From: a virus
Taxonomy: Duplodnaviria; Caudoviricetes
Virus record (IMG/VR): IMGVR_UViG_3300032289_001903
Span: 1 to 61,757 of that record
Reading direction: 5' to 3' (one strand)
Length of the DNA: 61,757 bases
Shown: positions 10,732 through 61,757 of the stretch, piece by piece
Numbering within the stretch: the stretch's first letter is position 1
Layout: every line of letters begins with the position of its first letter
Program-made: the position numbers and the translations under genes
Notes under the pieces: generated by a model
The model's input: the letters and a program-made list of their open reading frames with translations, nothing else
Database searches by the model: none
Told to the model about the DNA's origin: nothing

Positions 10732-10760
10732 GCGCACCCAAAAGGTGCGCTCTCTCTTTG
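10732..10760 (+). terminator. Putative intrinsic terminator
   Basis: GCGCACC-CAAAA-GGTGCGC hairpin with a pyrimidine tail. Confidence 0.55.
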
Positions 10761-10787
10761 CTTGTCAAAATAAAAATTTTATATTTA
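10757..10787 (+). promoter_or_regulatory. Bacteroidota-type sigma70 promoter candidate
   Basis: TTTG-N19-TATATTTA versus consensus TTTG-N19..21-TAnnTTTG; GTCAAAATA in the spacer. Confidence 0.45.
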
Positions 10788-10792
10788 ATTAT

Positions 10793-12094
10793 ATGCAAAA
10801 GAAAATCGTAATCGTAGGCGCCGGTGTAGCGGGCATAAACGCTGCAACTAAATTAGTAGATAACGGCTATGATGGTAGCTTAATCACTATTATAGACAAA
10901 GGTAATGACCCACATAACCGCTTACCTGAAGAGGTAATGACAGGTATGTTAGGTGCTGGTGGATGGAGTGATGGTAAATTAACATACCACACAGCAATCG
11001 GTGGTCAACTATCTAAGTATTGTGGTGAGGATAAAGCAATGGAATTGATGGATCAAGTTATTAGTAACTTCAGACGCTTTCACCCTAAACCAGAAGAAAT
11101 ATTCTGTTCTGATCCAGTAGCTGAACCAGACTTTATTAAACCATACTTTGGATTACGTTTGTTTCCTGTATGGCATATTGGTAGTAATTATTTACACGAG
11201 ATTGCTAAAGCATGGTATCAATATTTAGTTGATAAGGGTGTTAGGTTTGCTTGGAATACTGAGATAGATGAAATTGACTTTAAAGGACAAATGGTGATAG
11301 GTAAACAAGGTAAAACAGCAATGTTACCATATGATAATTTAATATTCGCAGTAGGTAAATCAGGTATTGACTTTGCACAACAATTATCAGACGACTATAA
11401 ATTACCAACTGAACCTAAATCAGTTCAAATAGGTGTTCGATTTGAAGCACCACAAAAATATTTTCAAAAATTAATAGATATTTCTTATGACTTCAAATTA
11501 TATCAGAAATATGAAAATGTTTCTTTACGTAGCTTTTGTACTAATAACAATGCCGCTTACGTGGCCGTGGAGGAAACGTACGGCGATGTTACGTACAACG
11601 GCCATGCGAAAAAGGGCGAACAATACAGAAACGATATGACCAATTTTGGTATATTGATGGAAATTAAAGGTATTGAAGATCCATTTAAATGGTCTAGAAA
11701 TGTAGTAAACAACATTCAGAGAAATGGAAAAGGATTGTATTACTCACCAAGTCGTAAACCATCAAATACATCAGAAGGAAATAATATTTCTTGTCACCAA
11801 GTAGATAATTGTTTGGTGTTTAAAGGAGAAATGGGAGAATATGCAGATTATATTCTTACCTTTATTGATAATATGAACGAAGTATTCAACTTTGGTGATG
11901 ATTGGGGTATGTATATTCCTGAAGTAAAGTACCTATCACCAGAACCACTAGTAAACTATACTAATTTAGCATTAACTGATTATCCAAATGTATATTTTGT
12001 TGGTGATGCATTAAGTGCTCGTGGTATTACTGTATCAGGTGCACATGGAATTTATGTTGCTGAATATTTATTGACAAACGTAACTAATGACTAA
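10793..12094 (+). CDS. FAD/NAD(P)-dependent oxidoreductase (COG2509-like)
   Basis: Rossmann IVGAGVAG, GAGGWSDGKL, FCTN, VGD..ARGI motifs. Start set at ATG 10793, downstream of the terminator and promoter. Confidence 0.8.
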   Translation: MQKKIVIVGAGVAGINAATKLVDNGYDGSLITIIDKGNDPHNRLPEEVMTGMLGAGGWSDGKLTYHTAIGGQLSKYCGEDKAMELMDQVISNFRRFHPKPEEIFCSDPVAEPDFIKPYFGLRLFPVWHIGSNYLHEIAKAWYQYLVDKGVRFAWNTEIDEIDFKGQMVIGKQGKTAMLPYDNLIFAVGKSGIDFAQQLSDDYKLPTEPKSVQIGVRFEAPQKYFQKLIDISYDFKLYQKYENVSLRSFCTNNNAAYVAVEETYGDVTYNGHAKKGEQYRNDMTNFGILMEIKGIEDPFKWSRNVVNNIQRNGKGLYYSPSRKPSNTSEGNNISCHQVDNCLVFKGEMGEYADYILTFIDNMNEVFNFGDDWGMYIPEVKYLSPEPLVNYTNLALTDYPNVYFVGDALSARGITVSGAHGIYVAEYLLTNVTND

Positions 12095-16680: not shown

Positions 16681-17211
16681 ATGGGTATGTCAACTAAAAT
16701 ATATTTAGTAGAAAATATAGAACCTGGTACTAACAAAGTTTATATAGGTAAAACTAAAAATAACGATAGGTACTATGGTCATCAATCTAAATATGGTTTA
16801 CAAATACAATATACTATAATAGATGAAATTAATTCATTAAATCATAGTGATTGGGAACCATTAGAAACATATTGGATTGAACAATTTAAACAATGGGGAT
16901 TTGAGGTAATAAATAAACGCAAAAAAGGTGGAAGTGGTCCAATATCTCATACTACTGAAACAAAACAAAAAATACGCAAAGGTAAAATAGGTCATGAGTG
17001 TTACTCTAATATAGAAAGAGGTAATAAAATTAGTAAAGCTTTACAAAATCATTCAAAACATTACACTGAAGAAATAATTCAAAAGATGAAAAAACCAAAA
17101 CCTAAAGATTTTGGTGAAAGAATAAGTAAAGCTTTAAAAGGTAGATCACGTCCTGATATAAAAGGTAGAGTAAGCCCTAATAAAGGTAAAACAAAGAAAA
17201 ATGAACAATAA
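16681..17211 (+). mobile_element. Free-standing GIY-YIG homing endonuclease with NUMOD3-like repeats
   Basis: KIYLV...VYIGKT, conserved E and N, then HTTETKQKI and KISKALKG-type repeats. Confidence 0.8.
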
Positions 17212-24421: not shown

Positions 24422-25045
24422 ATGAAACAACTTTTAATAGATCATATCCCCTTTAAAGTAGCCAAACTAACACTTAACGAAAGTAAGTCATCTAGCGGTC
24501 GTATGGTACTAGAAGGTAAACTACAAGCAGCTGACACCAAAAATGGTAACGGCCGTGTTTACCCTAAAGATATATTAAATAGAGAAATCGAAAAATATAT
24601 TAAAGGACCAGTAGCAAACAACAATGCTATGGGAGAATTAGATCATCCAGAAGCATCTATCATCAATTTAGCAAACGTATCACACAATATCACTAAAGTA
24701 TGGTGGGAAGGTGATGATGTAATGGGTAGATTAACACTACTTAATACACCATCAGGTAAAATTGCAATGGAATTAGTAAGCGCTGGAATACCATTAGGTA
24801 TATCATCACGCGGTATGGGTTCTGTTAAGCAATTAGGTGAAACAGTTGAAGTACAAGACGATTTTGAGTTGCTCTGCTGGGACCTTGTAAGTGTACCTTC
24901 AACTCCCGAGGCATATATGCACCCTGTAGGTAAATTAGGTGCTATGAACGAGAGCAAACAATATAAAACTAAAGACTACAGCAAGGTAAACTCACTCATT
25001 ACAGAAATAATATGCAGTCAGATGGGTGTCTGTCCACTATGCTAA
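24422..25045 (+). CDS. gp21: Prohead maturation protease (T4 gp21-like)
   Basis: NGNGRVYP, GELDHP (His), GISSRGMGS (Ser), WDLVSVPS. Confidence 0.93.
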   Translation: MKQLLIDHIPFKVAKLTLNESKSSSGRMVLEGKLQAADTKNGNGRVYPKDILNREIEKYIKGPVANNNAMGELDHPEASIINLANVSHNITKVWWEGDDVMGRLTLLNTPSGKIAMELVSAGIPLGISSRGMGSVKQLGETVEVQDDFELLCWDLVSVPSTPEAYMHPVGKLGAMNESKQYKTKDYSKVNSLITEIICSQMGVCPLC

Positions 25046-25076
25046 TATTTATAATAAACATAACAATTAAAATAAA

Positions 25077-25601
25077 ATGGCACAATTCATTAATGAAGCA
25101 AAAAGATTCCAGAAATTAGCTGGATTAATAACTGAATCACAGTTAAACGAAGAAGTAATTAATTTTGGAGATAAAGATGAATATTCTGAATTTCTTATGA
25201 ACGGAACAAAGAAATTAGAAGGTAGTAAAATTAAATTGAAAATACACGATACTTTCTCTATGTCAGATCCAAATGCAAAAGAATTTAGTGGATTTATTAC
25301 TGCATCTGGTTTAAAAAGAATTACTGGCCAAGCAGGTTCAGATCTTTCATATGAGTGTACTTTAGTAGATAATGGAGGTTATACAACAATGGAACCTTTA
25401 AAAGGAAAAAAGATAAGTCTAACTATTCCTAATACTACAGGAGGAAAAGGTGGATTCAGATGTGAAGATCCTAAAGTAGGTGGTTTATTTAAAGTAGAAT
25501 CTCTTGAAATTTTAGGAGCACCAACTTCTCAATCACAACAAGAATCAATCGAAAAAGCAGTAAACGAAGCACTAGCTAAATTCCGCAAAACAGGAAAATA
25601 A
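25077..25601 (+). CDS. Tagged putative head cargo protein (class III tag) between protease and scaffold
   Basis: INEAKRFQKLAGLITESQLNE; own ATATTTAT at 25045. Confidence 0.55.
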   Translation: MAQFINEAKRFQKLAGLITESQLNEEVINFGDKDEYSEFLMNGTKKLEGSKIKLKIHDTFSMSDPNAKEFSGFITASGLKRITGQAGSDLSYECTLVDNGGYTTMEPLKGKKISLTIPNTTGGKGGFRCEDPKVGGLFKVESLEILGAPTSQSQQESIEKAVNEALAKFRKTGK

Positions 25602-41949: not shown

Positions 41950-42900
41950 ATGTTAGACCTCTTTCACATACCATCTAATATAGATAGTACTAAAATATTT
42001 TATGCTCAAGGAGCAACAGCTTGGCAAACATGGGAAAAACCACGTAATGCTAAATTCATACAAATATTTTGTTTAGGCGGCGGAGCAGGAGGAGGTGGAG
42101 GAGCCGCTTCAACTTCTAATGCAACCCTGACCCGTGGAGGTGGAGGAGGTGGAGCTAGCGGAGGTATAACTAAAGCAATATATCCGGCTTTTCTACTACC
42201 AGACGTATTATATATTCAAGTTGGACTTGGAGGAGCAGGAGGAGCTGGTGCCCCTGGTAATGGTAATGGGGTAGGTGGTACAGCGGGAGGGTTAAGTTAT
42301 GTATCAATATCACCATCAACAACAGCTATAAATTTATTAGCCCAATCAAGTAACTTAGCAGCAGCTGCAGGAGGAGGAGCAGCTGCTAATGCTGGTTCGG
42401 CAGGAGCATCAGGAGCAGCTTGGGTAACAACATCAAGTCCCTTTGTATCGCTAGGATTAGTATTAACGTCGGTAACAGTAGCTGGTACAATTGGGGGTAG
42501 TGCAACAACAACAGGTTCAAATACAACTGCATTAACAACCAACGTAATGATGGGTGGAGCTGGAGGAGCTGGTGGTACATCAGGTTCTGGTGCTTTTAAT
42601 GGAGGAGCTATATCAGGATCTACTGTTATATTAACAACAACTCTTTTAGGTGGATTAGCGGGTGGTGGAACTACTGCTAGTGGATCTAATGGCTATGGAT
42701 CTCTAATACCTTTTTGTGGAACTGGAGGAGCAGGTGGTGGATCATCACAAGGAAATCCATCACCAGCAGTTGGAGGAAATGGGGGAAATGGATACTATGG
42801 ATGTGGAGGTGGTGGTGGTGGTGCCGCTTTTACTGGACCTGTAGCTGGCAGAGGTGGTCGTGGAGGAGATGGTTTAGTAATAATAACAACAATATTCTAA
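41950..42900 (+). CDS. Glycine-rich adhesin-like protein 1
   Basis: MLD...W.TW.KPR..KF...C.GGG; C-terminus GGRGGDGLVII.T.F. Confidence 0.65.
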   Translation: MLDLFHIPSNIDSTKIFYAQGATAWQTWEKPRNAKFIQIFCLGGGAGGGGGAASTSNATLTRGGGGGGASGGITKAIYPAFLLPDVLYIQVGLGGAGGAGAPGNGNGVGGTAGGLSYVSISPSTTAINLLAQSSNLAAAAGGGAAANAGSAGASGAAWVTTSSPFVSLGLVLTSVTVAGTIGGSATTTGSNTTALTTNVMMGGAGGAGGTSGSGAFNGGAISGSTVILTTTLLGGLAGGGTTASGSNGYGSLIPFCGTGGAGGGSSQGNPSPAVGGNGGNGYYGCGGGGGGAAFTGPVAGRGGRGGDGLVIITTIF

Positions 42901-42901
42901 A

Positions 42902-43804
42902 ATGTTAGATTTATCATATTTTCAAAATAGTGGAAATGTAAATACACAAACATTTACAAACGCAGGTTCTTGGGTGACATGGGTTAAACCAAGAGGGGCT
43001 AAGTTTGTAAACATATTCTGTATGGGAGCAGGATCGGGAGGAGGAGGTGGATTTCAAACTGGTTCTGCTACAAGATTTGCAGGAGCTGGAGGTAGTTCTG
43101 GAGGCGTTGTAAGTGCTCAATTTCAAGCTTCTATACTTCCGGATATACTATACGTTTACACAGGAGTAGGAGGAGTAGGTGGTACTGGTGGAGCAGCAGG
43201 AATAGTAACAGCAGGAGGTAATGGAGAAAGATCATTTGTTTGCTTAATACCAAGCACATCATCAATACAAAATATAGTAGTAACATCAGGAGCTGTAGCA
43301 GCTATCGGGGGTCAATCAGGATCAGCAGTTAGCCCAGCAGGTAGAAGTGGTGAAACACAAGCAACAACAGCAAATGCTATATTTTTAAATTTAGGAACTT
43401 TTATTGCAGCAGCAGGTACGGCAGGATCCGCTCCTCAATCAAGTACAACCTCAACAATAAATTTTATTAATTTTCCTGGAGCAGGAGGTGGAAGCACAGG
43501 TAATGGAGCTAATGTCACAGTAGCTGGACCATTTCCTATAACGACCCCAGTAGCAATCGCTGGGTCAGGCGCAACTAATGGCCAAAATGGAAGAAACGGA
43601 TATACGTTAACAAAGCCTATTTTAGGATTTATGGGAGGGAATGGAGGTGGTGGAATAGCTTCCGGAGGTACAGGCAATGCCGGTAATGGAGGAAATGCAT
43701 CATATGGATCAGGTGGAGGTGGTGGTGGTAGTGCTCAAACAGGTATAGCAGGTAATGGTGGTAGAGGTGGCGACGGACTTATAATTATAACAACAAGTTT
43801 TTAA
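42902..43804 (+). CDS. Glycine-rich adhesin-like protein 2
   Basis: Paralog of 41950 with the same terminal motifs. Confidence 0.65.
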   Translation: MLDLSYFQNSGNVNTQTFTNAGSWVTWVKPRGAKFVNIFCMGAGSGGGGGFQTGSATRFAGAGGSSGGVVSAQFQASILPDILYVYTGVGGVGGTGGAAGIVTAGGNGERSFVCLIPSTSSIQNIVVTSGAVAAIGGQSGSAVSPAGRSGETQATTANAIFLNLGTFIAAAGTAGSAPQSSTTSTINFINFPGAGGGSTGNGANVTVAGPFPITTPVAIAGSGATNGQNGRNGYTLTKPILGFMGGNGGGGIASGGTGNAGNGGNASYGSGGGGGGSAQTGIAGNGGRGGDGLIIITTSF

Positions 43805-43808
43805 TAAT

Positions 43809-44660
43809 ATGTTAGATATATTTGATATACCGGGACAACAAGATAATGTAAAGATATTTTATGCTGCTGGTATAACTGCTTGGCAAACATGGACTAAACC
43901 AAGAAACTGTAAGTTTATTTGGATGATGTGTATTGGAGGTGGTAGTGGTGGATTTGGAGGAGCAGGTGCCGGAGGAGCAGCTAATGCCCCCGGTGGACCA
44001 GGAGGAGCAGTTACTAAAGCATTATTTCCCGCTAACACACTACCAGATACTTTATTTATCCAACCAGGAACAGGAAGTATAGGAGGAGTAGGAGCAGCGA
44101 ATAATACTAATCCATCACCAAGCGTACCTGGAAGAAGTTTTATTGCTATAGCACCGAGTAGTGCTACTGTAATGAATATAGTATGCACATCAGGATTAGC
44201 TAATGCGTCTGGTACAACACCTGAATCAGCAGCAACTGTAGCCGCAGCTGGATTACTATCATTAGGGAATTTCACATCTATAGCAGGAGTTGCAGCTGCC
44301 GCTGGTGGATCTAATTTAACACCACTAACTACAACTATAACATGTGCTGGAGCTAATGGATCCGCCGCAGGAGCTGTTGCAGGAGCTAGTATATTATCTG
44401 TAAATTTGGGAACATTTAATACACCACTCATTTCGGGAGGAGCTTCAGGATTGATTGGAAACAGTGGAGTATGGTTTTGGAAACCAATGTTTGGTTTAGG
44501 AGCATCAGGAGGAGGCGGAGTTACAAGTGGATTAGCAGGTAATGGAGGTAGTGCAAATTCATATGGTTGTGGAGGAGGAGGAGGAGGAAACTCAGGAGCC
44601 GGTACTGGAGGTAATGGAGGTAGAGGAGGAGACGGTTTAGTAATTATAGCAACTTTCTAA
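43809..44660 (+). CDS. Glycine-rich adhesin-like protein 3
   Basis: Paralog of 41950 with the same terminal motifs. Confidence 0.65.
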   Translation: MLDIFDIPGQQDNVKIFYAAGITAWQTWTKPRNCKFIWMMCIGGGSGGFGGAGAGGAANAPGGPGGAVTKALFPANTLPDTLFIQPGTGSIGGVGAANNTNPSPSVPGRSFIAIAPSSATVMNIVCTSGLANASGTTPESAATVAAAGLLSLGNFTSIAGVAAAAGGSNLTPLTTTITCAGANGSAAGAVAGASILSVNLGTFNTPLISGGASGLIGNSGVWFWKPMFGLGASGGGGVTSGLAGNGGSANSYGCGGGGGGNSGAGTGGNGGRGGDGLVIIATF

Positions 44661-54926: not shown

Positions 54927-57857
54927 ATGTCTATATTTAAAGCAACTTTTCCTGAAGGTATTCAAAAGCAATTAAAGGCTCGTCAAGATAAAATATTTAA
55001 AAGAGATTTTGAAGCAATAAAATATCTTAATTCACGAACAGCATGGATTAGAATGACATCTGCTGTTAATACAGGAGCTAGTGAAGGAAATGATGGTACA
55101 AATGCATTAGCAAATAATAATGTTTTATTAGGTGGAGCTTTATACAATAATGCTCCTAGAAGTGGTGTTGGTACAACTGGTACAGAAGCATATAGTTTAA
55201 AAACATCATCTGGTGTTACTCATAGACTTGGTATAAGACCAATGCCCGGTATTACGGGAATAGAAATTAAGTCTAAAGGTGGATATGGTTCATTAAGAGA
55301 AATAACAGTTAATTTTAATTGTTGGGATATACGTCAATTAGAAGAATTAGAATTATTATATATGCGTCCTGGTTATACTGCTTTAGTAGAATGGGGATGG
55401 GTACCTTATTTAGATAATAATGGAAATTTATCTACGGTTATTAATCTTACAAATGATGTTTTAACTGGTGGAAAAACCAAAGAAGAAATTTGGAAAAATA
55501 TATTTACAAAAGCATCTTCTGATGGTAATTATGATGCTATATATGGTTTTATAAAAAATTATAGTTGGTCCGCTAGAGATGATGGTGGATATGATTGTAC
55601 TACTAGTCTCATAACAATGGGCGAAGTTTTAGAATCATTGAAAATTAACTACATATCATCTCAAAAAATATCATCACCACAATCTAAAGGATTATTTAAA
55701 GTATTAGATGGTTCTCAATTTCAAAAAAACACATCAATAAGCAAATCTTATTCCCAAAATAAACTAGCAGGGATATTAAATGAAATGTGGGCTATTGCTA
55801 AAGAAAAGATTACTGCATCCCCTGTAGGTGCTCAAAATATTACATTAGGAGGATATGAATATCATTTTCTTAGATACGATATTACTATAGCGGGAAGAGA
55901 TGCAACCGCTATTAAAGATTCTTTTGTAGAAGAAGATCAACAAATATATATTACCTTAAAAGATTTTATTCATTTACTTAATAGTTATATTTTACTAAGT
56001 GATGAATTGTCAGGTACAGCAGTAGTACCTGTTTCTGTAACAGAAGGAGCTCATAATGGTGGAAAAGAAGGTGATCCTCTTTTATGCTTAGGAAATAAAT
56101 TTCAGTTATCAACAGATCCTACAATATGTCAAATAAAAAATATGGCTTGGACTAACTTAGCAAGTTTAGGACTAAGTGTAGAAGCATTTTTACAAGCCAC
56201 AGATACAGAAACTTTAAAAAGTTTAATGAATACAATGACAGAAAATTTTCTACAAGATCCTGATAATAAACAATTAGGTATTATAGGAAATATATATGTT
56301 AATTTAGGTTATATTTATTCTTTAATTGTAAATGATGATTTAGCTAATGCTGATTCGAAAGAAAAAAAAGATGTAAATTTATATGATTTTTTAAAAAACA
56401 TGTTGAGTGGAATCAATTCATGTATAGGAAACGTAGCGACACTTGAATTATTTGTAGACCCAGTAGATTCAGTAGCAAGAATTATAGATTTAAATTATGT
56501 TGAACTACAAGATAGAGCAACAACATATAAAAATGCTTTCACTCTTGAAATTGCAAATTTAAAATCAACTGTAAGATCATATAAACTAGAATCTCAAATA
56601 TTTCCAGATCAAACAACAACAATTGCAATTGGAGCTCAAGTAAAAGGTGGAGCATTAGCTTCTGATGATAATACTTTATTGGATTTTAATAAGGGTTTAT
56701 TAGATAGAATAGTTCCAAGAAAAGTAGAACCACCTATAGCAGAAGATAAAAAAACAAAAGATGAAGAAATAGCAACAAAACTAACAAATTTAAAATCAAA
56801 TGTTGATGTTATACTTAGCTATATCAACACAGCCGATCCTAGTTGGTATGAACATGCAGGTGATTTTGATGTTGCAAATTCTGGTAAATATGCTAACGCT
56901 TTAAAAGATATAATTAATTTCTATAGATCATTTGTAAAAGATAATAATAAAAATAGATCTATTATCCCTACTAAATTATCTTTAGATATGGATGGTATTG
57001 GTGGAATAGTAGTAGGAAATCTATTTAAAATACCAGATGATCTATTACCTAAAGGATATAAAGGAGGGGATGGTATTGGTTCAAAAATAGCATTTACTGT
57101 AAACGAAATAGGGGCATCCGTTCAGAATAATGATTGGGTAACTAAAATAGGAACACAATTCATTATATTAGATGAACCAGGAACAGGAACAACATCAGCA
57201 GCTTGGGCTGCGGCTACGGCAGAACTTATAAAGGTAGCAACAACAGTAAAAGAAGAAACAAAAGCTGTAGATACTGTTAATAAAATTGTTGGAAACTTAA
57301 ATAATTTACCTGCTACCCCCTCAGGAAATGGAAATTGGAATACTTTAAATAATACTCTTTTAACTATATCTACTCAATTAGATCAATGGAAAGAAGCTCG
57401 TTCTAATCCTAATATTATTAATGCGTATAAAGAAGTAGGAGCACCTCAAAGTTCAGATTCAGTAGCATGGTGTGCTGCTTTTGTAGGGTATGTTTTAAAA
57501 ACATCTGGATTACCTTATTTAAAAGGTAATTTAAGCAGTGTAGCTTATGCTAGATATGGAAATGAAGTTTCTCTTAATGATCCAACCCAATGGAGAAAAT
57601 GGGACATAATAGTTTGGAAACATACTAGCAAACCAGGAACAGGACACGTTTCTTTTTTAACAGGGGTAACTAAAAGCGGAGTAACAGTACTAGAACCAGC
57701 AAGTGCTTTCGGTGGTAATCAAGGAGATAAAGTAAGAGTTTCAAAATATCCTTATAGAGGATCAGATATGGTTCTAATTGGTGTTAGAAGAAATTGGGTT
57801 CCACCAACTGATGGTCTTCCTGTAGCTTCTGGTGAGATAGGAGGTAATACTAGATAA
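54927..57857 (+). CDS. Baseplate hub with C-terminal CHAP/NlpC-P60-like hydrolase
   Basis: RPMPGITG, PG...LVEWGW hub region; C-terminal WCAAFV...GHVSF...GGNQ (Cys/His). Confidence 0.75.
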   Translation: MSIFKATFPEGIQKQLKARQDKIFKRDFEAIKYLNSRTAWIRMTSAVNTGASEGNDGTNALANNNVLLGGALYNNAPRSGVGTTGTEAYSLKTSSGVTHRLGIRPMPGITGIEIKSKGGYGSLREITVNFNCWDIRQLEELELLYMRPGYTALVEWGWVPYLDNNGNLSTVINLTNDVLTGGKTKEEIWKNIFTKASSDGNYDAIYGFIKNYSWSARDDGGYDCTTSLITMGEVLESLKINYISSQKISSPQSKGLFKVLDGSQFQKNTSISKSYSQNKLAGILNEMWAIAKEKITASPVGAQNITLGGYEYHFLRYDITIAGRDATAIKDSFVEEDQQIYITLKDFIHLLNSYILLSDELSGTAVVPVSVTEGAHNGGKEGDPLLCLGNKFQLSTDPTICQIKNMAWTNLASLGLSVEAFLQATDTETLKSLMNTMTENFLQDPDNKQLGIIGNIYVNLGYIYSLIVNDDLANADSKEKKDVNLYDFLKNMLSGINSCIGNVATLELFVDPVDSVARIIDLNYVELQDRATTYKNAFTLEIANLKSTVRSYKLESQIFPDQTTTIAIGAQVKGGALASDDNTLLDFNKGLLDRIVPRKVEPPIAEDKKTKDEEIATKLTNLKSNVDVILSYINTADPSWYEHAGDFDVANSGKYANALKDIINFYRSFVKDNNKNRSIIPTKLSLDMDGIGGIVVGNLFKIPDDLLPKGYKGGDGIGSKIAFTVNEIGASVQNNDWVTKIGTQFIILDEPGTGTTSAAWAAATAELIKVATTVKEETKAVDTVNKIVGNLNNLPATPSGNGNWNTLNNTLLTISTQLDQWKEARSNPNIINAYKEVGAPQSSDSVAWCAAFVGYVLKTSGLPYLKGNLSSVAYARYGNEVSLNDPTQWRKWDIIVWKHTSKPGTGHVSFLTGVTKSGVTVLEPASAFGGNQGDKVRVSKYPYRGSDMVLIGVRRNWVPPTDGLPVASGEIGGNTR

Positions 57858-58463: not shown

Positions 58464-59756
58464 ATGTTTTACATTATCGAAAGACAAGATCAATTACAAC
58501 AACTAGGTCCGTTTAATGATTGCTTCGTTCAGTTTATTCAACAAAACGACAACTATCATCCTAAACTAAGTCCACTAAGTTTAATTTATGTTCGTGATAT
58601 AACACAACATAAAGGGTATATGCTGTGTTTAGACCACAACGAATCATTTTCACTACAACAACAAGATGTGTTTGAGTGGTTATTAGGAAATACTGATAGA
58701 ATGTTTATATTGAATAAGAAAGAAGCAATGTACCACTTCCCATACCCAGATAAGTTATATGACATCAACTTTATTGAACACCCAGATCTAACAGGTATAT
58801 TTACACCTTGTCATACATTCTATTATAGACTCCACACAGCAAGTCCAATAACAAATAAACTAATTCCAATTAGTAAACACTATGAAGAATGCGAGAATGC
58901 ATTTGATGTAGTACTTCCAATAATACAACAGTACCGCTCAGATAACGCCGTTTATGCGTTTAATAACGGCCCTTTAACGCGCGTGTTTCACGCTATAGAA
59001 TCAAATGGTATTAAAGTAGATAAACAATGCTTTATTGATGCTTATGGTAAAGATTTACTTTACCCACAACTCAACCTTAGTAAAGGTAGAATATACAGCC
59101 AATACAATCTATACACATTAACGGGTAGACCATCAAACACATACAACAGTATTAACTTTGCTGCATTAGATAAAAATAATGGTGAGCGTTTATGCTATAG
59201 ACCAACAAACGATAAATTTGTTGAATTTGATATTCAGGGATATCACCCACGCATATTAGGTGATATGATTGATTTTAATTTTGGTGATAAAAACACATAC
59301 GAAACGCTAAGTGAATTGTTAGGTGTAACAACACAAGAAGCTAAGGAACTAACATTCAAACAATTATATGGTGGTGTATGGAAAGATTATCGCAATCAAC
59401 CCTTCTTTAAAGATATAGTAACATTAACCGATGGTATATGGGATGAATACCAATATGGTAAACAATATGCAACTCGCAATCGCGTATTTACATTAGATAA
59501 GGAAATGACACAATCTAAATTACTAAATTATATTATTCAGAGTCATGAAACATCAAACAACGTAGCGATGTTAGACAACATATTAAACTATTTGAAAGAT
59601 AAGAAAACAAAATTAGTGCTATACACATATGATGCATTCTTATTTGATTATAGTAAGGAAGATGGTACCCAATTGTTAACCGATATCAAAGAACTGATAC
59701 ACTACCCTATCAACGTTAAACAGGGTAAGTCGTATCATGGTTTGGAGAAAATATAA
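58464..59756 (+). CDS. Short atypical family A DNA polymerase-like protein
   Basis: TGRPS, motif A FDIQGYHPR, motif B AKELTFKQLYGG, NYIIQ, motif C YTYDAFLFD. Confidence 0.75.
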   Translation: MFYIIERQDQLQQLGPFNDCFVQFIQQNDNYHPKLSPLSLIYVRDITQHKGYMLCLDHNESFSLQQQDVFEWLLGNTDRMFILNKKEAMYHFPYPDKLYDINFIEHPDLTGIFTPCHTFYYRLHTASPITNKLIPISKHYEECENAFDVVLPIIQQYRSDNAVYAFNNGPLTRVFHAIESNGIKVDKQCFIDAYGKDLLYPQLNLSKGRIYSQYNLYTLTGRPSNTYNSINFAALDKNNGERLCYRPTNDKFVEFDIQGYHPRILGDMIDFNFGDKNTYETLSELLGVTTQEAKELTFKQLYGGVWKDYRNQPFFKDIVTLTDGIWDEYQYGKQYATRNRVFTLDKEMTQSKLLNYIIQSHETSNNVAMLDNILNYLKDKKTKLVLYTYDAFLFDYSKEDGTQLLTDIKELIHYPINVKQGKSYHGLEKI

Positions 59757-59765
59757 ATATTTATA

Positions 59766-60188
59766 ATGGAACAACTAAACGAATTTTTTGACTTGAACAA
59801 ATTATTCTGCACATTTACCTCACCAGCAGATTTAGAGGAAACGGTAGCGACGATTAATCGTAAATATGCAATATTATTTAATAAAGTATTTGTATTGGAA
59901 TCACCACAAAGTGATGAACTAATATGTACTTATAATATTGATACAGGCAATATGGCGGCAGCACCTATGGCTAATACTATCCTATTACATCGCAAAAAGG
60001 AATCCAATACATTATATACTATCAATGCATTAAATACATTGATTAAATCATTGAATGGTGGTGTATTAGATACACGATTCATAGTGAATTGGCAGGATTA
60101 TAAAAACAGCATATTATTAACTAATGGCCCTGATTTAAGAAAATTAGATACTGCTATACATAAGATTGTAGATTTTAGTAGAAATTAA
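59766..60188 (+). CDS. Phage protein of unknown function next to PolA
   Basis: KLFCTF, TYNI, HRKKESNTLYTINALN motifs. Confidence 0.55.
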   Translation: MEQLNEFFDLNKLFCTFTSPADLEETVATINRKYAILFNKVFVLESPQSDELICTYNIDTGNMAAAPMANTILLHRKKESNTLYTINALNTLIKSLNGGVLDTRFIVNWQDYKNSILLTNGPDLRKLDTAIHKIVDFSRN

Positions 60189-60220: not shown

Positions 60221-60733
60221 ATGAAACAACAAATTAACGAAATTAGAAGAATGCAGCAATTAGCTGGATTGATTATTGAAGCATTTAACTCATTTTTAGA
60301 TACTAATATGGGAGGATGGATAAGAGAATATATAGATGATGTAGTTGAAGATAATATGGGCGAACCAGAGTCATTAAATTTAGAATATCGTTCTGATTTT
60401 GATATAGCTTTCAATTTAGCACTTTCTAAACTTTCCCAAGAACAATTCCCACTATATATATCAGATGATTCTAAATTAGCTTCTGGGTTTATTAAACCTA
60501 AAGGGATTGGGTTTATAATGAATAGCAATGGAGAAACAACAGTAACACCAGAAATAGTTCAGATATTTAATGATAACTATGGTATAATTGATATTAATTA
60601 TATTAAAGATTTCTTTACAAATGCAAGTAATTGGAAAATGATTACTGATGAAAATGATATATCTAATTATAAAAAATTATATTTAATTGATACTGAAAGT
60701 AATCAAATAGGTAATAAAGAAAATTTCTTTTAG
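60221..60733 (+). CDS. Tagged putative head cargo protein (class III tag) inserted in replication module
   Basis: INEIRRMQQLAGLIIE; own ATATTTAT at 60188. Confidence 0.55.
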   Translation: MKQQINEIRRMQQLAGLIIEAFNSFLDTNMGGWIREYIDDVVEDNMGEPESLNLEYRSDFDIAFNLALSKLSQEQFPLYISDDSKLASGFIKPKGIGFIMNSNGETTVTPEIVQIFNDNYGIIDINYIKDFFTNASNWKMITDENDISNYKKLYLIDTESNQIGNKENFF

Positions 60734-60821: not shown

Positions 60822-61649
60822 ATGGACTTATCAGTCATCAAGCAGAAGTTGTCCGCTTCTCAAACTAAAGGACAAAAACGTGAAAAAGTCGATTACTCCA
60901 AGATTTTTTTCAAGCCAAAACCAGGCAAGTATCAGATCAGGATTCTCCCCTCTAAGTTCGACAAATCAAACCCATTCCGCGAAGTTTACTTCCACTATGG
61001 CTTTTCAAAAGGACCAATCTTAGCATTGACCAATTGGAACGAGAAAGACCCAATCGCTGAATTCTCAAAGAACCTCCGCAAATCCGCTGACAAAGAAGAC
61101 TGGATGCTTGCAAAGAAAATTGAACCAAAATTACGCTACTTCGTTCCAGTATTGGTACGTGGTGAAGAAGCACAAGGCCCTCGCCTATGGGAATTTGGTA
61201 AATTAATTTATGAGCAATTGTTAGGTATCGCTGCAGACGAAGATTATGGTGATTTTACAGACATCACTGATGGACGTGACTTTACAATCGATGCTGTTGA
61301 AGATGTAGTTGCTGGTAGAAAAGGTATCAAATGTAACATTCGTGTTAAACCTAAGACATCCGCTATTTCTGAAGACGCAGCTGTAGTAACAAAAGCATTG
61401 GATGAACAACCAGACATTCTCGGTATCAACAAACACTATTCATTTGATGAATTGAAAGATTTATTGGATAAGTGGTTAAATCCTGATAGCGAAGAAGATA
61501 CTGATGCTCCAATTGCATCTAAGGATGAAGAAGAGGAAGAAGACGATTTCTTAGCTGAAATGAACAAGCCAGTAGAACAAACCTACAAGCTTGACACTAC
61601 AGCAGCAAAGACGTCTAACGCAGACAAGTTCGACGATTTATTTTCGTAA
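60822..61649 (+). CDS. Single-stranded DNA-binding protein (T4 gp32-like)
   Basis: IRILP, PF..V.FHY, DPI.E, RYF.PVLVRG, W.FGK.IY..L, D.TD...GRDF, acidic tail ending DKFDDLFS. Confidence 0.8.
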   Translation: MDLSVIKQKLSASQTKGQKREKVDYSKIFFKPKPGKYQIRILPSKFDKSNPFREVYFHYGFSKGPILALTNWNEKDPIAEFSKNLRKSADKEDWMLAKKIEPKLRYFVPVLVRGEEAQGPRLWEFGKLIYEQLLGIAADEDYGDFTDITDGRDFTIDAVEDVVAGRKGIKCNIRVKPKTSAISEDAAVVTKALDEQPDILGINKHYSFDELKDLLDKWLNPDSEEDTDAPIASKDEEEEEDDFLAEMNKPVEQTYKLDTTAAKTSNADKFDDLFS

Positions 61650-61666
61650 TTAATTAAACAAAATTT

Positions 61667-61757
61667 ATGGCAAAAAGTAAGAGCTCACTGAGTGAGGTGG
61701 TAAGCAATTCGCTTAACAAGACATTTGATCTGTCTTCATTCAAAAAGAGCAAGTTTT
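61667..61757 (+). CDS. 5' end of next gene (possibly RecA/UvsX-like, by synteny only)
   Basis: MAKSKSSLSEVVSNSLNKTFDLSSFKKSKF runs off the window; no diagnostic motif visible. Confidence 0.3.
   Translation, partial: MAKSKSSLSEVVSNSLNKTFDLSSFKKSKF

Follow-up and report, generated by a model that had tools for sequence, protein, structure and literature searches.

divPolA1 is a family of phage DNA polymerases named in 'Jumping DNA polymerases in bacteriophages' (10.1101/2024.04.26.591309; Virol J 2024;21:200, PMC11348598). In the parts of that work on which we draw, gp001 of Flavobacterium phage immuto is the type member (PMC11348598; preprint), and 14 phages of 155-190 kb are listed with divPolA1, each also encoding a regular PolA, PolB or PolC, with conserved replication genes downstream of divPolA1 (PMC11348598). 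The AlphaFold models described there keep the catalytic residues of the palm, have a truncated thumb and have all three exonuclease Asp residues replaced (PMC11348598). Here we examine a gene at positions 58464-59756 (+ strand, ATG to TAA) of IMG/VR record IMGVR_UViG_3300032289_001903, a 61.7-kb phage genome fragment that was analyzed over its full 61,757 nucleotides and is called the window below. The gene encodes a divPolA1 protein of 430 amino acids (aa), the length given in an earlier note on this DNA. The reading that we favor, with moderate confidence, is that divPolA1 is a miniaturized Klenow-type DNA polymerase, distributive and using deoxyribonucleoside triphosphates (dNTPs), which serves as an accessory enzyme of a recombination or lagging-strand module and is not the replicase.

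A reclassification of PolA in 2023 distinguished 19 clusters, treated the steric gate ('position A2') as a functional position and described the crucial catalytic residues as strictly conserved in every one of the clusters (PMC10201439). Going by the outline of that article, none of the 19 cluster names corresponds to the immuto-type group.

A further member of the divPolA1 family

A tblastn search of 50,697 phage records with the window protein gave six matches: four records of Flavobacterium phage immuto, Microcystis phage Mel-JY01 and a 484-kb uncultured phage. The match to immuto gp001, annotated as 'DNA polymerase family A', has 32.7% identity at 97% coverage (E 6e-62). To examine close relatives, we used 31 related loci in IMG/VR, three of which lie on near-complete genomes (rated 93-100% complete): G001 (170 kb, with terminal repeats; divPolA1 85% identical to the window copy), G002 (169 kb; 69% identical) and G003 (155 kb; 65% identical). 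G001 is the closest of the three and is collinear with the window over ~27.7-85.4 kb of its length; its divPolA1 and the immuto orthologue are 33% identical (E 5e-75).

The window gene is alike to published divPolA1 in its full-length homology, size class (~410-450 aa), predicted architecture and downstream replication and recombination genes, and shows no difference in kind from it. It is a further member of a family already published in 2024. New here, relative to the text consulted from the published description (PMC11348598), are the extent of the family far beyond the 14 listed phages, a fixed pocket signature, the co-occurrence of a small gene that we call p140, and the replisome and primase found in close relatives. 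divPolA1 is plentiful in phages from the environment: of 8000 candidates scored, 6371 were homologues at E <= 0.001 (the 120 listed among them being 363-438 aa long), and an exhaustive search, clustered at 50%, gave 1069 representatives, of which 353 had E <= 1e-30.

Motif equivalences to E. coli Pol I

The earlier note had recognized a PolA-like enzyme by comparing its motifs with those of E. coli Pol I by eye. Searches of Pfam (E <= 1), PHROGs and PDB sequences with the single protein sequence (P0001) gave no match, so this homology needed testing, and we re-tested the equivalences with two independent profile alignments, HMMER against Klenow chains and hhalign against Pol I. The link to PolA was reached by the family profile only and not by single-sequence search: the profile matches the Aquifex Pol I, Klenow, apicoplast and Bst PolA chains at E 1.7e-8 to ~1e-6. 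HMMER places 'vefDydayHlrL' of the family opposite 'VSADYSQIELRI' of the Klenow chains and 'LYtYDsF' opposite 'MQVHDEL', and hhalign aligns the family profile with residues 650-907 of full-length E. coli Pol I (NC_000913.3) at a probability of 94.9% (E 4.3e-8).

In the window protein, residues 253-266 are VEFDIQGYHPRILG and residues 386-395 are LYTYDAFLFD. By hhalign, R222 is equivalent to R668 and belongs, with P223, to the T-x-R motif (59127-59132, + strand, like all positions that follow). Motif A, DIQGYHPR (residues 256-263; 59229-59252), supplies the catalytic D256, equivalent to D705, with Y260 at I709 and H261 at E710. Motif B (residues 290-303; 59331-59372) has T290 at R754 and retains K294 (K758), F298 (F762) and Y302 (Y766), followed by G303. 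The segment N355...Q359..E362 (59526-59552) contains the equivalents of N845 (N355) and Q849 (Q359) together with an invariant Glu specific to the family, and motif C, YTYDA (residues 387-391; 59622-59636), has D390 at D882, flanked by Y389 at H881 and A391 at E883. Residues R836-A842 of Pol I, including R841, fall opposite a gap.

The by-eye reading of the motifs proved correct throughout. Both profile alignments put His261, encoded by CAC at 59244-59246, at E710, and neither restores a Glu at the gate; both also confirm the replacement of R754 by Thr290 and of His-Asp-Glu by Tyr-Asp-Ala in motif C, and the retention of the catalytic Asp pair and of K758, F762, Y766, R668, N845 and Q849.

Whether the protein counts as family A depends on the definition used. 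By fold and motifs it belongs, having a Klenow fold, T-x-R, the motif A Asp, a motif B of the form K...F/Y...YG and the motif C Asp. Two hallmarks of the family, the Glu steric gate and the His-Asp-Glu of motif C, are both absent, and the Pfam model DNA_pol_A (PF00476) gave 15.1 bits in a six-frame search on the G002 orthologue, below its cut-off of 34.3.

A compacted Klenow fragment

Family-wide comparisons rest on an alignment (A1) of the query with 94 of 150 listed representatives, 95 sequences in all, at 28-60% identity to the query. Its members were picked by eye for near-full-length coverage, and 56 rows (fragments, partial matches and some others) were dropped. An AlphaFold2 model built from this alignment has a pLDDT (predicted local distance difference test) of 97.1 and a pTM (predicted template modeling score) of 0.94. 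Foldseek found 233 matches to it in the PDB at E <= 0.001, and all 40 listed are family A DNA polymerases, with TM-scores (template modeling) of up to 0.72 on the query.

In an exhaustive VIA-align comparison with 48,161 chains, the Klenow fragment (601 residues) scored Z 22.9, with a root-mean-square deviation of 3.3 and 418 of 430 residues aligned. Close to it were M. smegmatis Pol1 (Z 22.9, 400 aligned), DpoZ (Z 22.8, 404), Pol I of phage G20c (Z 22.2, 413), Pol nu (Z 21.6, 402), Pol theta (Z 20.3, 402) and T7 DNA polymerase (DNAP; Z 20.0, 395), and much lower stood the RNA polymerases (RNAPs) of yeast mitochondria (Z 12.6, 239), T7 (Z 11.6, 242) and N4 (vRNAP; Z 8.7, 241). Measured against the three reference enzymes Klenow, T7 DNAP and T7 RNAP, the model is thus far closer to the DNA polymerases (Z 22.9 and 20.0 vs 11.6). 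The family profile behaves likewise in hhalign, with a weak match to T7 DNAP in the correct register (E 0.013) and a probability of 0.1% for T7 RNAP. What divPolA1 has in common with T7-type single-subunit RNAPs is the core of palm and fingers, to which the 242 aligned residues correspond; T7 RNAP shows no profile similarity to divPolA1 and has a promoter-binding N-terminal domain that divPolA1 lacks, carrying instead the exonuclease-fold domain typical of DNA polymerases.

This N-terminal domain comprises residues 1-~180 (58464-59003). Residues 1-176/183 alone align in VIA-align to the DEDD exonucleases RNase D, ExnV1 and Rrp6, at Z 9-12. The absence of recognizable exonuclease motifs, reported in the earlier note, is upheld by the 95 sequences, which have no conserved D-x-E or other acidic set: in the first central strand (residues 20-26), column 23 is Glu in just 25 and column 25 is Ile in 78, and the only acidic columns conserved to at least 90% within residues 1-136 are column 60 (Glu in 70, Asp in 25) and column 100 (Asp in 86). 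Because the exonuclease-fold residues align alone to DEDD exonucleases, we describe divPolA1, as modeled, as a compacted Klenow fragment that still includes this domain.

The best structural and profile match is accordingly the Klenow type of bacterial Pol I, especially the exonuclease-dead Bst and Taq enzymes, in which a 3'-5' exonuclease fold without catalytic residues is also found. T-x-R and motifs A, B, 6 and C follow in the same order as in the Pol I large fragment. divPolA1 differs from Pol I in the replacement of E710 by His and I709 by Tyr, in the loss of R754, in the change of HDE to YD(S/A), and in being ~175 residues shorter than the 605-residue Klenow chains. The thumb is probably truncated, judging from the published models (PMC11348598) and from this length deficit rather than from a per-residue comparison.

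A pocket signature fixed across the family

The substitutions in the nucleotide-binding pocket are neither chance nor peculiar to the window copy; they are fixed across the family. Column 261, the gate, is His in 94 of 95 sequences and Gln in the other. Column 260 (I709) is Tyr in 79 and Phe in 11, hence aromatic in 90/95. Column 290 (R754) is Tyr in 57, Ile in 11 and Arg in 7; column 391 (E883) is Ser in 69, Ala in 24 and Gly in 2; and column 389 (H881) is Tyr in 94. Motif C has the form Tyr-Asp-(Ser/Ala/Gly) in 95/95. Alongside these changes, D256, K294, R222 (with P223), Q359 and D390 are each present in 95/95, F298 in 89, Y302 in 92 and N355 in 72. The R668, K758, N845 and Q849 equivalents among them serve to place the primer terminus and the triphosphate. 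The immuto and Mel-JY01 proteins, though distant, carry the same pocket pattern.

This combination bears on whether the enzyme works at all. A catalytically dead scaffold, with the binding of DNA or of other replisome proteins as its sole function, would account for the loss of the exonuclease site and of the E883 and R754 equivalents, and for the quick divergence of the gene. It would leave unexplained why the metal-binding Asp pair and the K758, R668 and Q849 equivalents are invariant in all 95 sequences, which share just ~30-60% identity, a degree of conservation that is not expected of a dead site, and we regard such a scaffold as very improbable.

In Klenow-type Pol I, E710 is the steric gate that excludes ribonucleoside triphosphates (rNTPs), a role reportedly worked out by Astatke and colleagues in 1998, and E883 and R754 contribute to catalysis and triphosphate binding. 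The earlier note had taken the loss of this Glu as a hint that the enzyme may use rNTPs, and a remodeled pocket with relaxed sugar selection could belong to a primase-like enzyme, a transcriptase or a maker of RNA/DNA hybrid primers. E710 is indeed replaced in 95/95 sequences, E883 has given way to Ser or Ala as in the IHDSF of T7 RNAP, and R754 is mostly lost. The residue at the gate is nevertheless another bulky side chain, its neighbor is Tyr or Phe, and the F762 and Y766 equivalents are kept; at the gate position of T7 RNAP, +5 from the motif A Asp (DGSCSGIQH), there is Gly where divPolA1 has His. Fold and profile also match DNA polymerases far better, with Z of 20-23 over ~400 residues vs 8.7-12.6 over ~240 for the RNA polymerases and hhalign probabilities of 94.9% for Pol I vs 0.1% for T7 RNAP, and a separate primase of DnaG type is encoded in four of four complete relatives (see below). 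We therefore consider rNTP use quite improbable.

His has precedents as a gate. H931 of PolD (family D) has been shown experimentally to be one: H931A abolishes discrimination, which scales with the size of the side chain (PMC7708050). H760 of Pol III alpha (family C) has been proposed as another (PMC8485763). As described in the text consulted from these articles, the side chain of the His faces the 2' position of the nucleotide that enters, and rNTPs are excluded (PMC7708050, PMC8485763); the folds of both enzymes are unrelated to that of divPolA1, whose His is placed at the gate by alignment only. Since His is the gate in PolD and the proposed one in Pol III alpha and the neighbor at I709 is now aromatic, His261 and Tyr260 most likely form, by analogy, an alternative gate through which rNTPs still cannot pass. 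Without equivalents of R754 and E883, the enzyme is predicted to show altered handling of the triphosphate and metals and probably slower catalysis.

The terms 'steric' and 'ribonucleotide' do not occur in the text of the divPolA1 preprint, nor 'steric', 'translesion' or 'Okazaki' in that of the published article, Figure 5 and the supplements set aside; the gate residue may be visible in the alignment of Figure 5 (PMC11348598). The same text raises the possibility of an RNA polymerase for divPolA2, the second divergent family, and not for divPolA1 (PMC11348598).

Separate polymerases and a divergent primase in related genomes

The proposal of the earlier note that the enzyme is not the ordinary replicase is very probably right. 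We searched the genomes of relatives for a second polymerase and found a PolB above the Pfam cut-off in all three near-complete ones, in frames of 863-878 aa; PolB is also present in Mel-JY01. There is no PolB match in immuto, whose annotation has a 777-aa PolA without counterpart in G001-G003; the Pfam model detects no PolA in those three genomes beyond the divPolA1 gene itself (15.1 bits, below cut-off). A separate regular polymerase is thus present in five of five complete relatives (G001-G003, Mel-JY01 and, by annotation, immuto), in agreement with the published description, as far as we draw on it (PMC11348598).

Pfam and PHROG scans of G001 proteins (sets of 118, 17 and 69) outline what surrounds this polymerase. 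PolB with its exonuclease domain, the clamp and two clamp-loader subunits lie within ~8 kb, and the genome also encodes gp32, UvsX, a DnaB-type helicase, FEN with both 5'-3' exonuclease domains, ribonucleotide reductase, thioredoxin, GroES, GroEL and genes of the preQ0 pathway.

No primase came out of these scans, which raised the idea that one was missing. Six-frame family searches then disposed of it, since G001, G002, G003 and immuto each have one frame of DnaG type, 314-322 aa long. The DNAG_N matches in it sum to 29.9-36.1 bits (cut-off 26), the Zn ribbon scores 18-20.7 bits, below cut-off, in all four, and Toprim_2 is at the cut-off in two of the four. The DnaG-type primase of these genomes has diverged too far for routine annotation and emerges only once the scores of three weak Pfam domains within a single frame are summed. 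In G001 it lies at 24557-25495, among structural and early genes and ~57 kb from the helicase, and in immuto at ~104.5-105.3 kb, no primase being annotated in the first 100 kb of that genome. A guess that two window ORFs (open reading frames), at 1351-1671 and 1673-2317, form a split primase was wrong: by synteny with G001, the primase lies ~3 kb before the start of the window, and a tblastn search of the window with the G001 primase gave no match (best E 6.8). A primase-like role for divPolA1, another suggestion of the earlier note, is disfavored both by this separate frame in 4/4 complete relatives and by the Klenow-type fold; the primase searches were for the DnaG type and did not extend to archaeo-eukaryotic primase (AEP) families.

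The preQ0 genes in the same genomes bear on a further suggestion of the earlier note, modified nucleotides. G001 carries FolE, QueD, a QueE-like gene and QueC at 92480-98337, and immuto is also annotated with QueF and DpdA (18.6-37 kb), which implies, from gene content, modified DNA in these phages. divPolA1 could then be specialized for copying or making phage DNA that carries 7-deazaguanine or other modifications and is poorly handled by the main replicase, and QueC is found in four of the five divPolA1 genomes tested. The fifth, Mel-JY01, has divPolA1 and p140 and no QueC match, so an obligatory link between divPolA1 and 7-deazaguanine genes can be rejected. Moreover, the residues that have changed touch the sugar, the phosphate and the metal, not the base, and DpdA is known to insert 7-deazaguanines only once replication is over. 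We hold this specialization to be distinctly improbable.

p140 and the conserved gene block

The window, a piece of a T4-like myovirus, has a G+C content of 32.7% and is transcribed almost wholly in the + direction, judging by the orientation of its genes. Its products recognized by Pfam are a T4-type terminase, portal (gp20), prohead protease, major capsid protein (gp23), sheath, tube and PhoH, with a gp32-type single-stranded DNA-binding protein (SSB) at the far right. The polymerase ORF opens the replication block, directly after the last structural genes.

Ten nucleotides after the polymerase stop begins p140 (59766-60188, +), a gene for a protein of 140 aa that we treat as a conserved neighbor and candidate partner. 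It is present in the same six of six phage records as the polymerase, at most 1.6 kb downstream, and in 18 of 19 IMG/VR loci with at least 450 nt beyond the polymerase, the single miss having just 643 nt; in two IMG/VR loci a 919-nt insertion separates the two genes. p140 is also strongly conserved, with 65 of 140 positions invariant in 23 sequences. Its identity to immuto gp002 is 57.5% by tblastn and 58% by BLASTP, vs 33% for the polymerases, and at 55-58% identity to immuto it is more conserved than every neighbor in the module except UvsX. We regard it as an obligate-looking companion gene of divPolA1.

Searches with p140 gave a chance-level match to MNE1 only in Pfam at E <= 0.1, no match in PHROGs (with the G001 orthologue), no match of its profile in the PDB at E <= 10 and no usable match in the ESM Atlas. 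The Pfam UvsY model matched nowhere in four genomes at E <= 1, so p140 is not recognizably UvsY, and the JGI label MutS2 on several of its homologues is supported by no search. p140 has at least 8000 homologues, which resemble one another too closely to supply a diverse alignment. An AlphaFold2 model from a 23-row alignment (74-93% identical to the query) is unusable (pLDDT 42.7), and the predicted complex of divPolA1 with p140, scoring 0.00 with so uncertain a p140 fold, gives no verdict either way. As p140 stands directly downstream of the polymerase and co-occurs with it in every phage record, it is plausible as a partner subunit, of the kind that the earlier note thought the enzyme might need.

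After p140 comes a variable slot, occupied in the window by a 170-aa ORF (60221-60733, +) without conservation in relatives: it has no similarity to immuto gp003, and only its first 20-30 residues match G001 ORFs. Elsewhere the slot holds different ORFs or homing endonucleases. A 176-aa ORF of the window just upstream of the terminase (16681-17211, +) is 46% identical to a G001 homing endonuclease with a NUMOD1 domain (PHROG), which sits in G001 between p140 and gp32. The pair has the look of a mobile endonuclease that settles at different sites in related phages.

The next conserved member of the module is the gp32-type SSB (60822-61649, +; Pfam gp32 E 3.7e-12), whose protein is 95.6% identical to its G001 homologue. 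The window shows the block as far as it reaches, namely divPolA1, p140 and gp32. The full order divPolA1, p140, gp32, UvsX, FEN and helicase is conserved from Flavobacterium phages to a Microcystis cyanophage (G001, immuto and Mel-JY01), and in these three genomes FEN, which has both of the Pfam 5'-3' exonuclease domains, follows divPolA1 at a distance of 3-5 genes.

A probable accessory role

We infer the activity, sugar preference and cellular role of divPolA1 from its fold, pocket and gene context. Because the thumb is shortened and there is no proofreading, divPolA1 is probably distributive. The genome would be copied by a separate and full replisome, with the T4-type PolB, clamp and clamp loader seen in the closest relatives, and divPolA1 would carry out short-patch synthesis for the block of p140, gp32, UvsX, FEN and the DnaB-type helicase. 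The homologue of the N-terminal domain of Pol I is encoded near divPolA1 as a separate gene, FEN. Since divPolA1 and a separate FEN together cover the domains of bacterial Pol I, a part in removing primers and filling gaps suggests itself: divPolA1 may fill gaps and displace RNA primers for the neighboring FEN, as a Pol I split into separate genes. Alternatively or additionally, it may extend recombination intermediates made by UvsX and gp32.

Several points weigh against this reading. The activity of divPolA1 is a prediction in both the preprint and the published article, in the text drawn on here (PMC11348598), where the surroundings of the regular polymerases are also said to look less clearly replicative than those of divPolA1, which leaves room for a more central divPolA1. 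The PolB and primase of the window phage itself are deduced from relatives, the window being a fragment that ends at 61757. divPolA1 is the fastest-evolving gene of the module, with 33% identity between G001 and immuto vs 42-62% for gp32, FEN, DnaB, p140 and UvsX. The R754 equivalent is basic in just 7/95 sequences and the E883 equivalent acidic in 0/95, so that the enzyme could be slow or use a different substrate geometry, and the Ser after the Asp in the motif C of T7 RNAP (IHDSF) resembles the Ser/Ala of divPolA1, whereas T7 DNAP has VHDEI. The lost E883 and R754, the T7 RNAP-like motif C and the fast evolution keep a substrate-specialized reading alive at low probability.

The gene context also invites a more central role, in which the true core replicase is divPolA1, possibly assisted by p140 as an accessory or processivity subunit, and the exchangeable regular PolA, PolB or PolC does something else. 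divPolA1 is the constant element, together with helicase, SSB and recombinase; the regular polymerase varies between A, B and C and, in the text drawn on and by annotation, adjoins GroES/GroEL and nucleotide-metabolism genes (PMC11348598); and the family is very large, as its 6371 homologues and 1069 representatives attest. We judge this unlikely all the same, since divPolA1 lacks a proofreading site and has a reduced thumb although the genomes measure 155-190 kb, since the PolB with exonuclease domain, clamp and two clamp-loader subunits of G001 are a standard T4 replicase set, and since divPolA1 evolves faster than every other gene of the module.

A more speculative idea, to which we give rather little credence, is that divPolA1 and p140 form a two-subunit hand-off polymerase whose pocket (a Tyr-His gate, no R754, Ser/Ala for E883) suits RNA-containing substrates. 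Such an enzyme would extend short RNA primers made by the DnaG-type primase, tolerate or insert ribonucleotides, or copy RNA, and then pass its product to the replicase, be it A, B or C. If so, divPolA1 would for that reason stay constant while the replicase is swapped, and the pair would correspond, in viruses of bacteria, to the Pol alpha step of eukaryotes.

divPolA1 is of interest as a natural experiment in the minimum size of a Klenow-type polymerase and in whether a family A gate can be rebuilt with His and Tyr, with a bearing on the engineering of compact polymerases and on the evolution of sugar selectivity. A constant pair of divPolA1 and p140 beside an exchanged main replicase points to an unrecognized step of phage replication or recombination.

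Other genes in the window and in G001

Between its nucleotide-metabolism genes and PolB, G001 has two giant ORFs (99161-108973), which encode 2094 and 1170 aa. The former contains a region of His-rich repeats (Plasmodium_HRP-like, E 6e-8, below cut-off), and the latter matches only phrog_25468, of unknown function, in five stretches.

Three tandem paralogous ORFs of 316, 300 and 283 aa at 41950-44660 (+) of the window, each with a Pfam Gly_rich_2 match (E 4e-8 to 2e-7), have no match among G001 proteins in the synteny map and are probably tail-fiber or receptor-binding paralogues. An auxiliary oxidoreductase is encoded upstream of the terminase by a 449-aa ORF that starts with GTG (10745-12094, +); it has an N-terminal FAD/NAD(P) Rossmann motif (Pyr_redox_2, E 2.5e-10) and is 84% identical to a G001 protein. 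Adjoining the baseplate genes, a 976-aa protein (54927-57857, +) carries a CHAP peptidoglycan-hydrolase domain at its C-terminus (E 1.9e-5), which makes it a likely tail-associated lysin.

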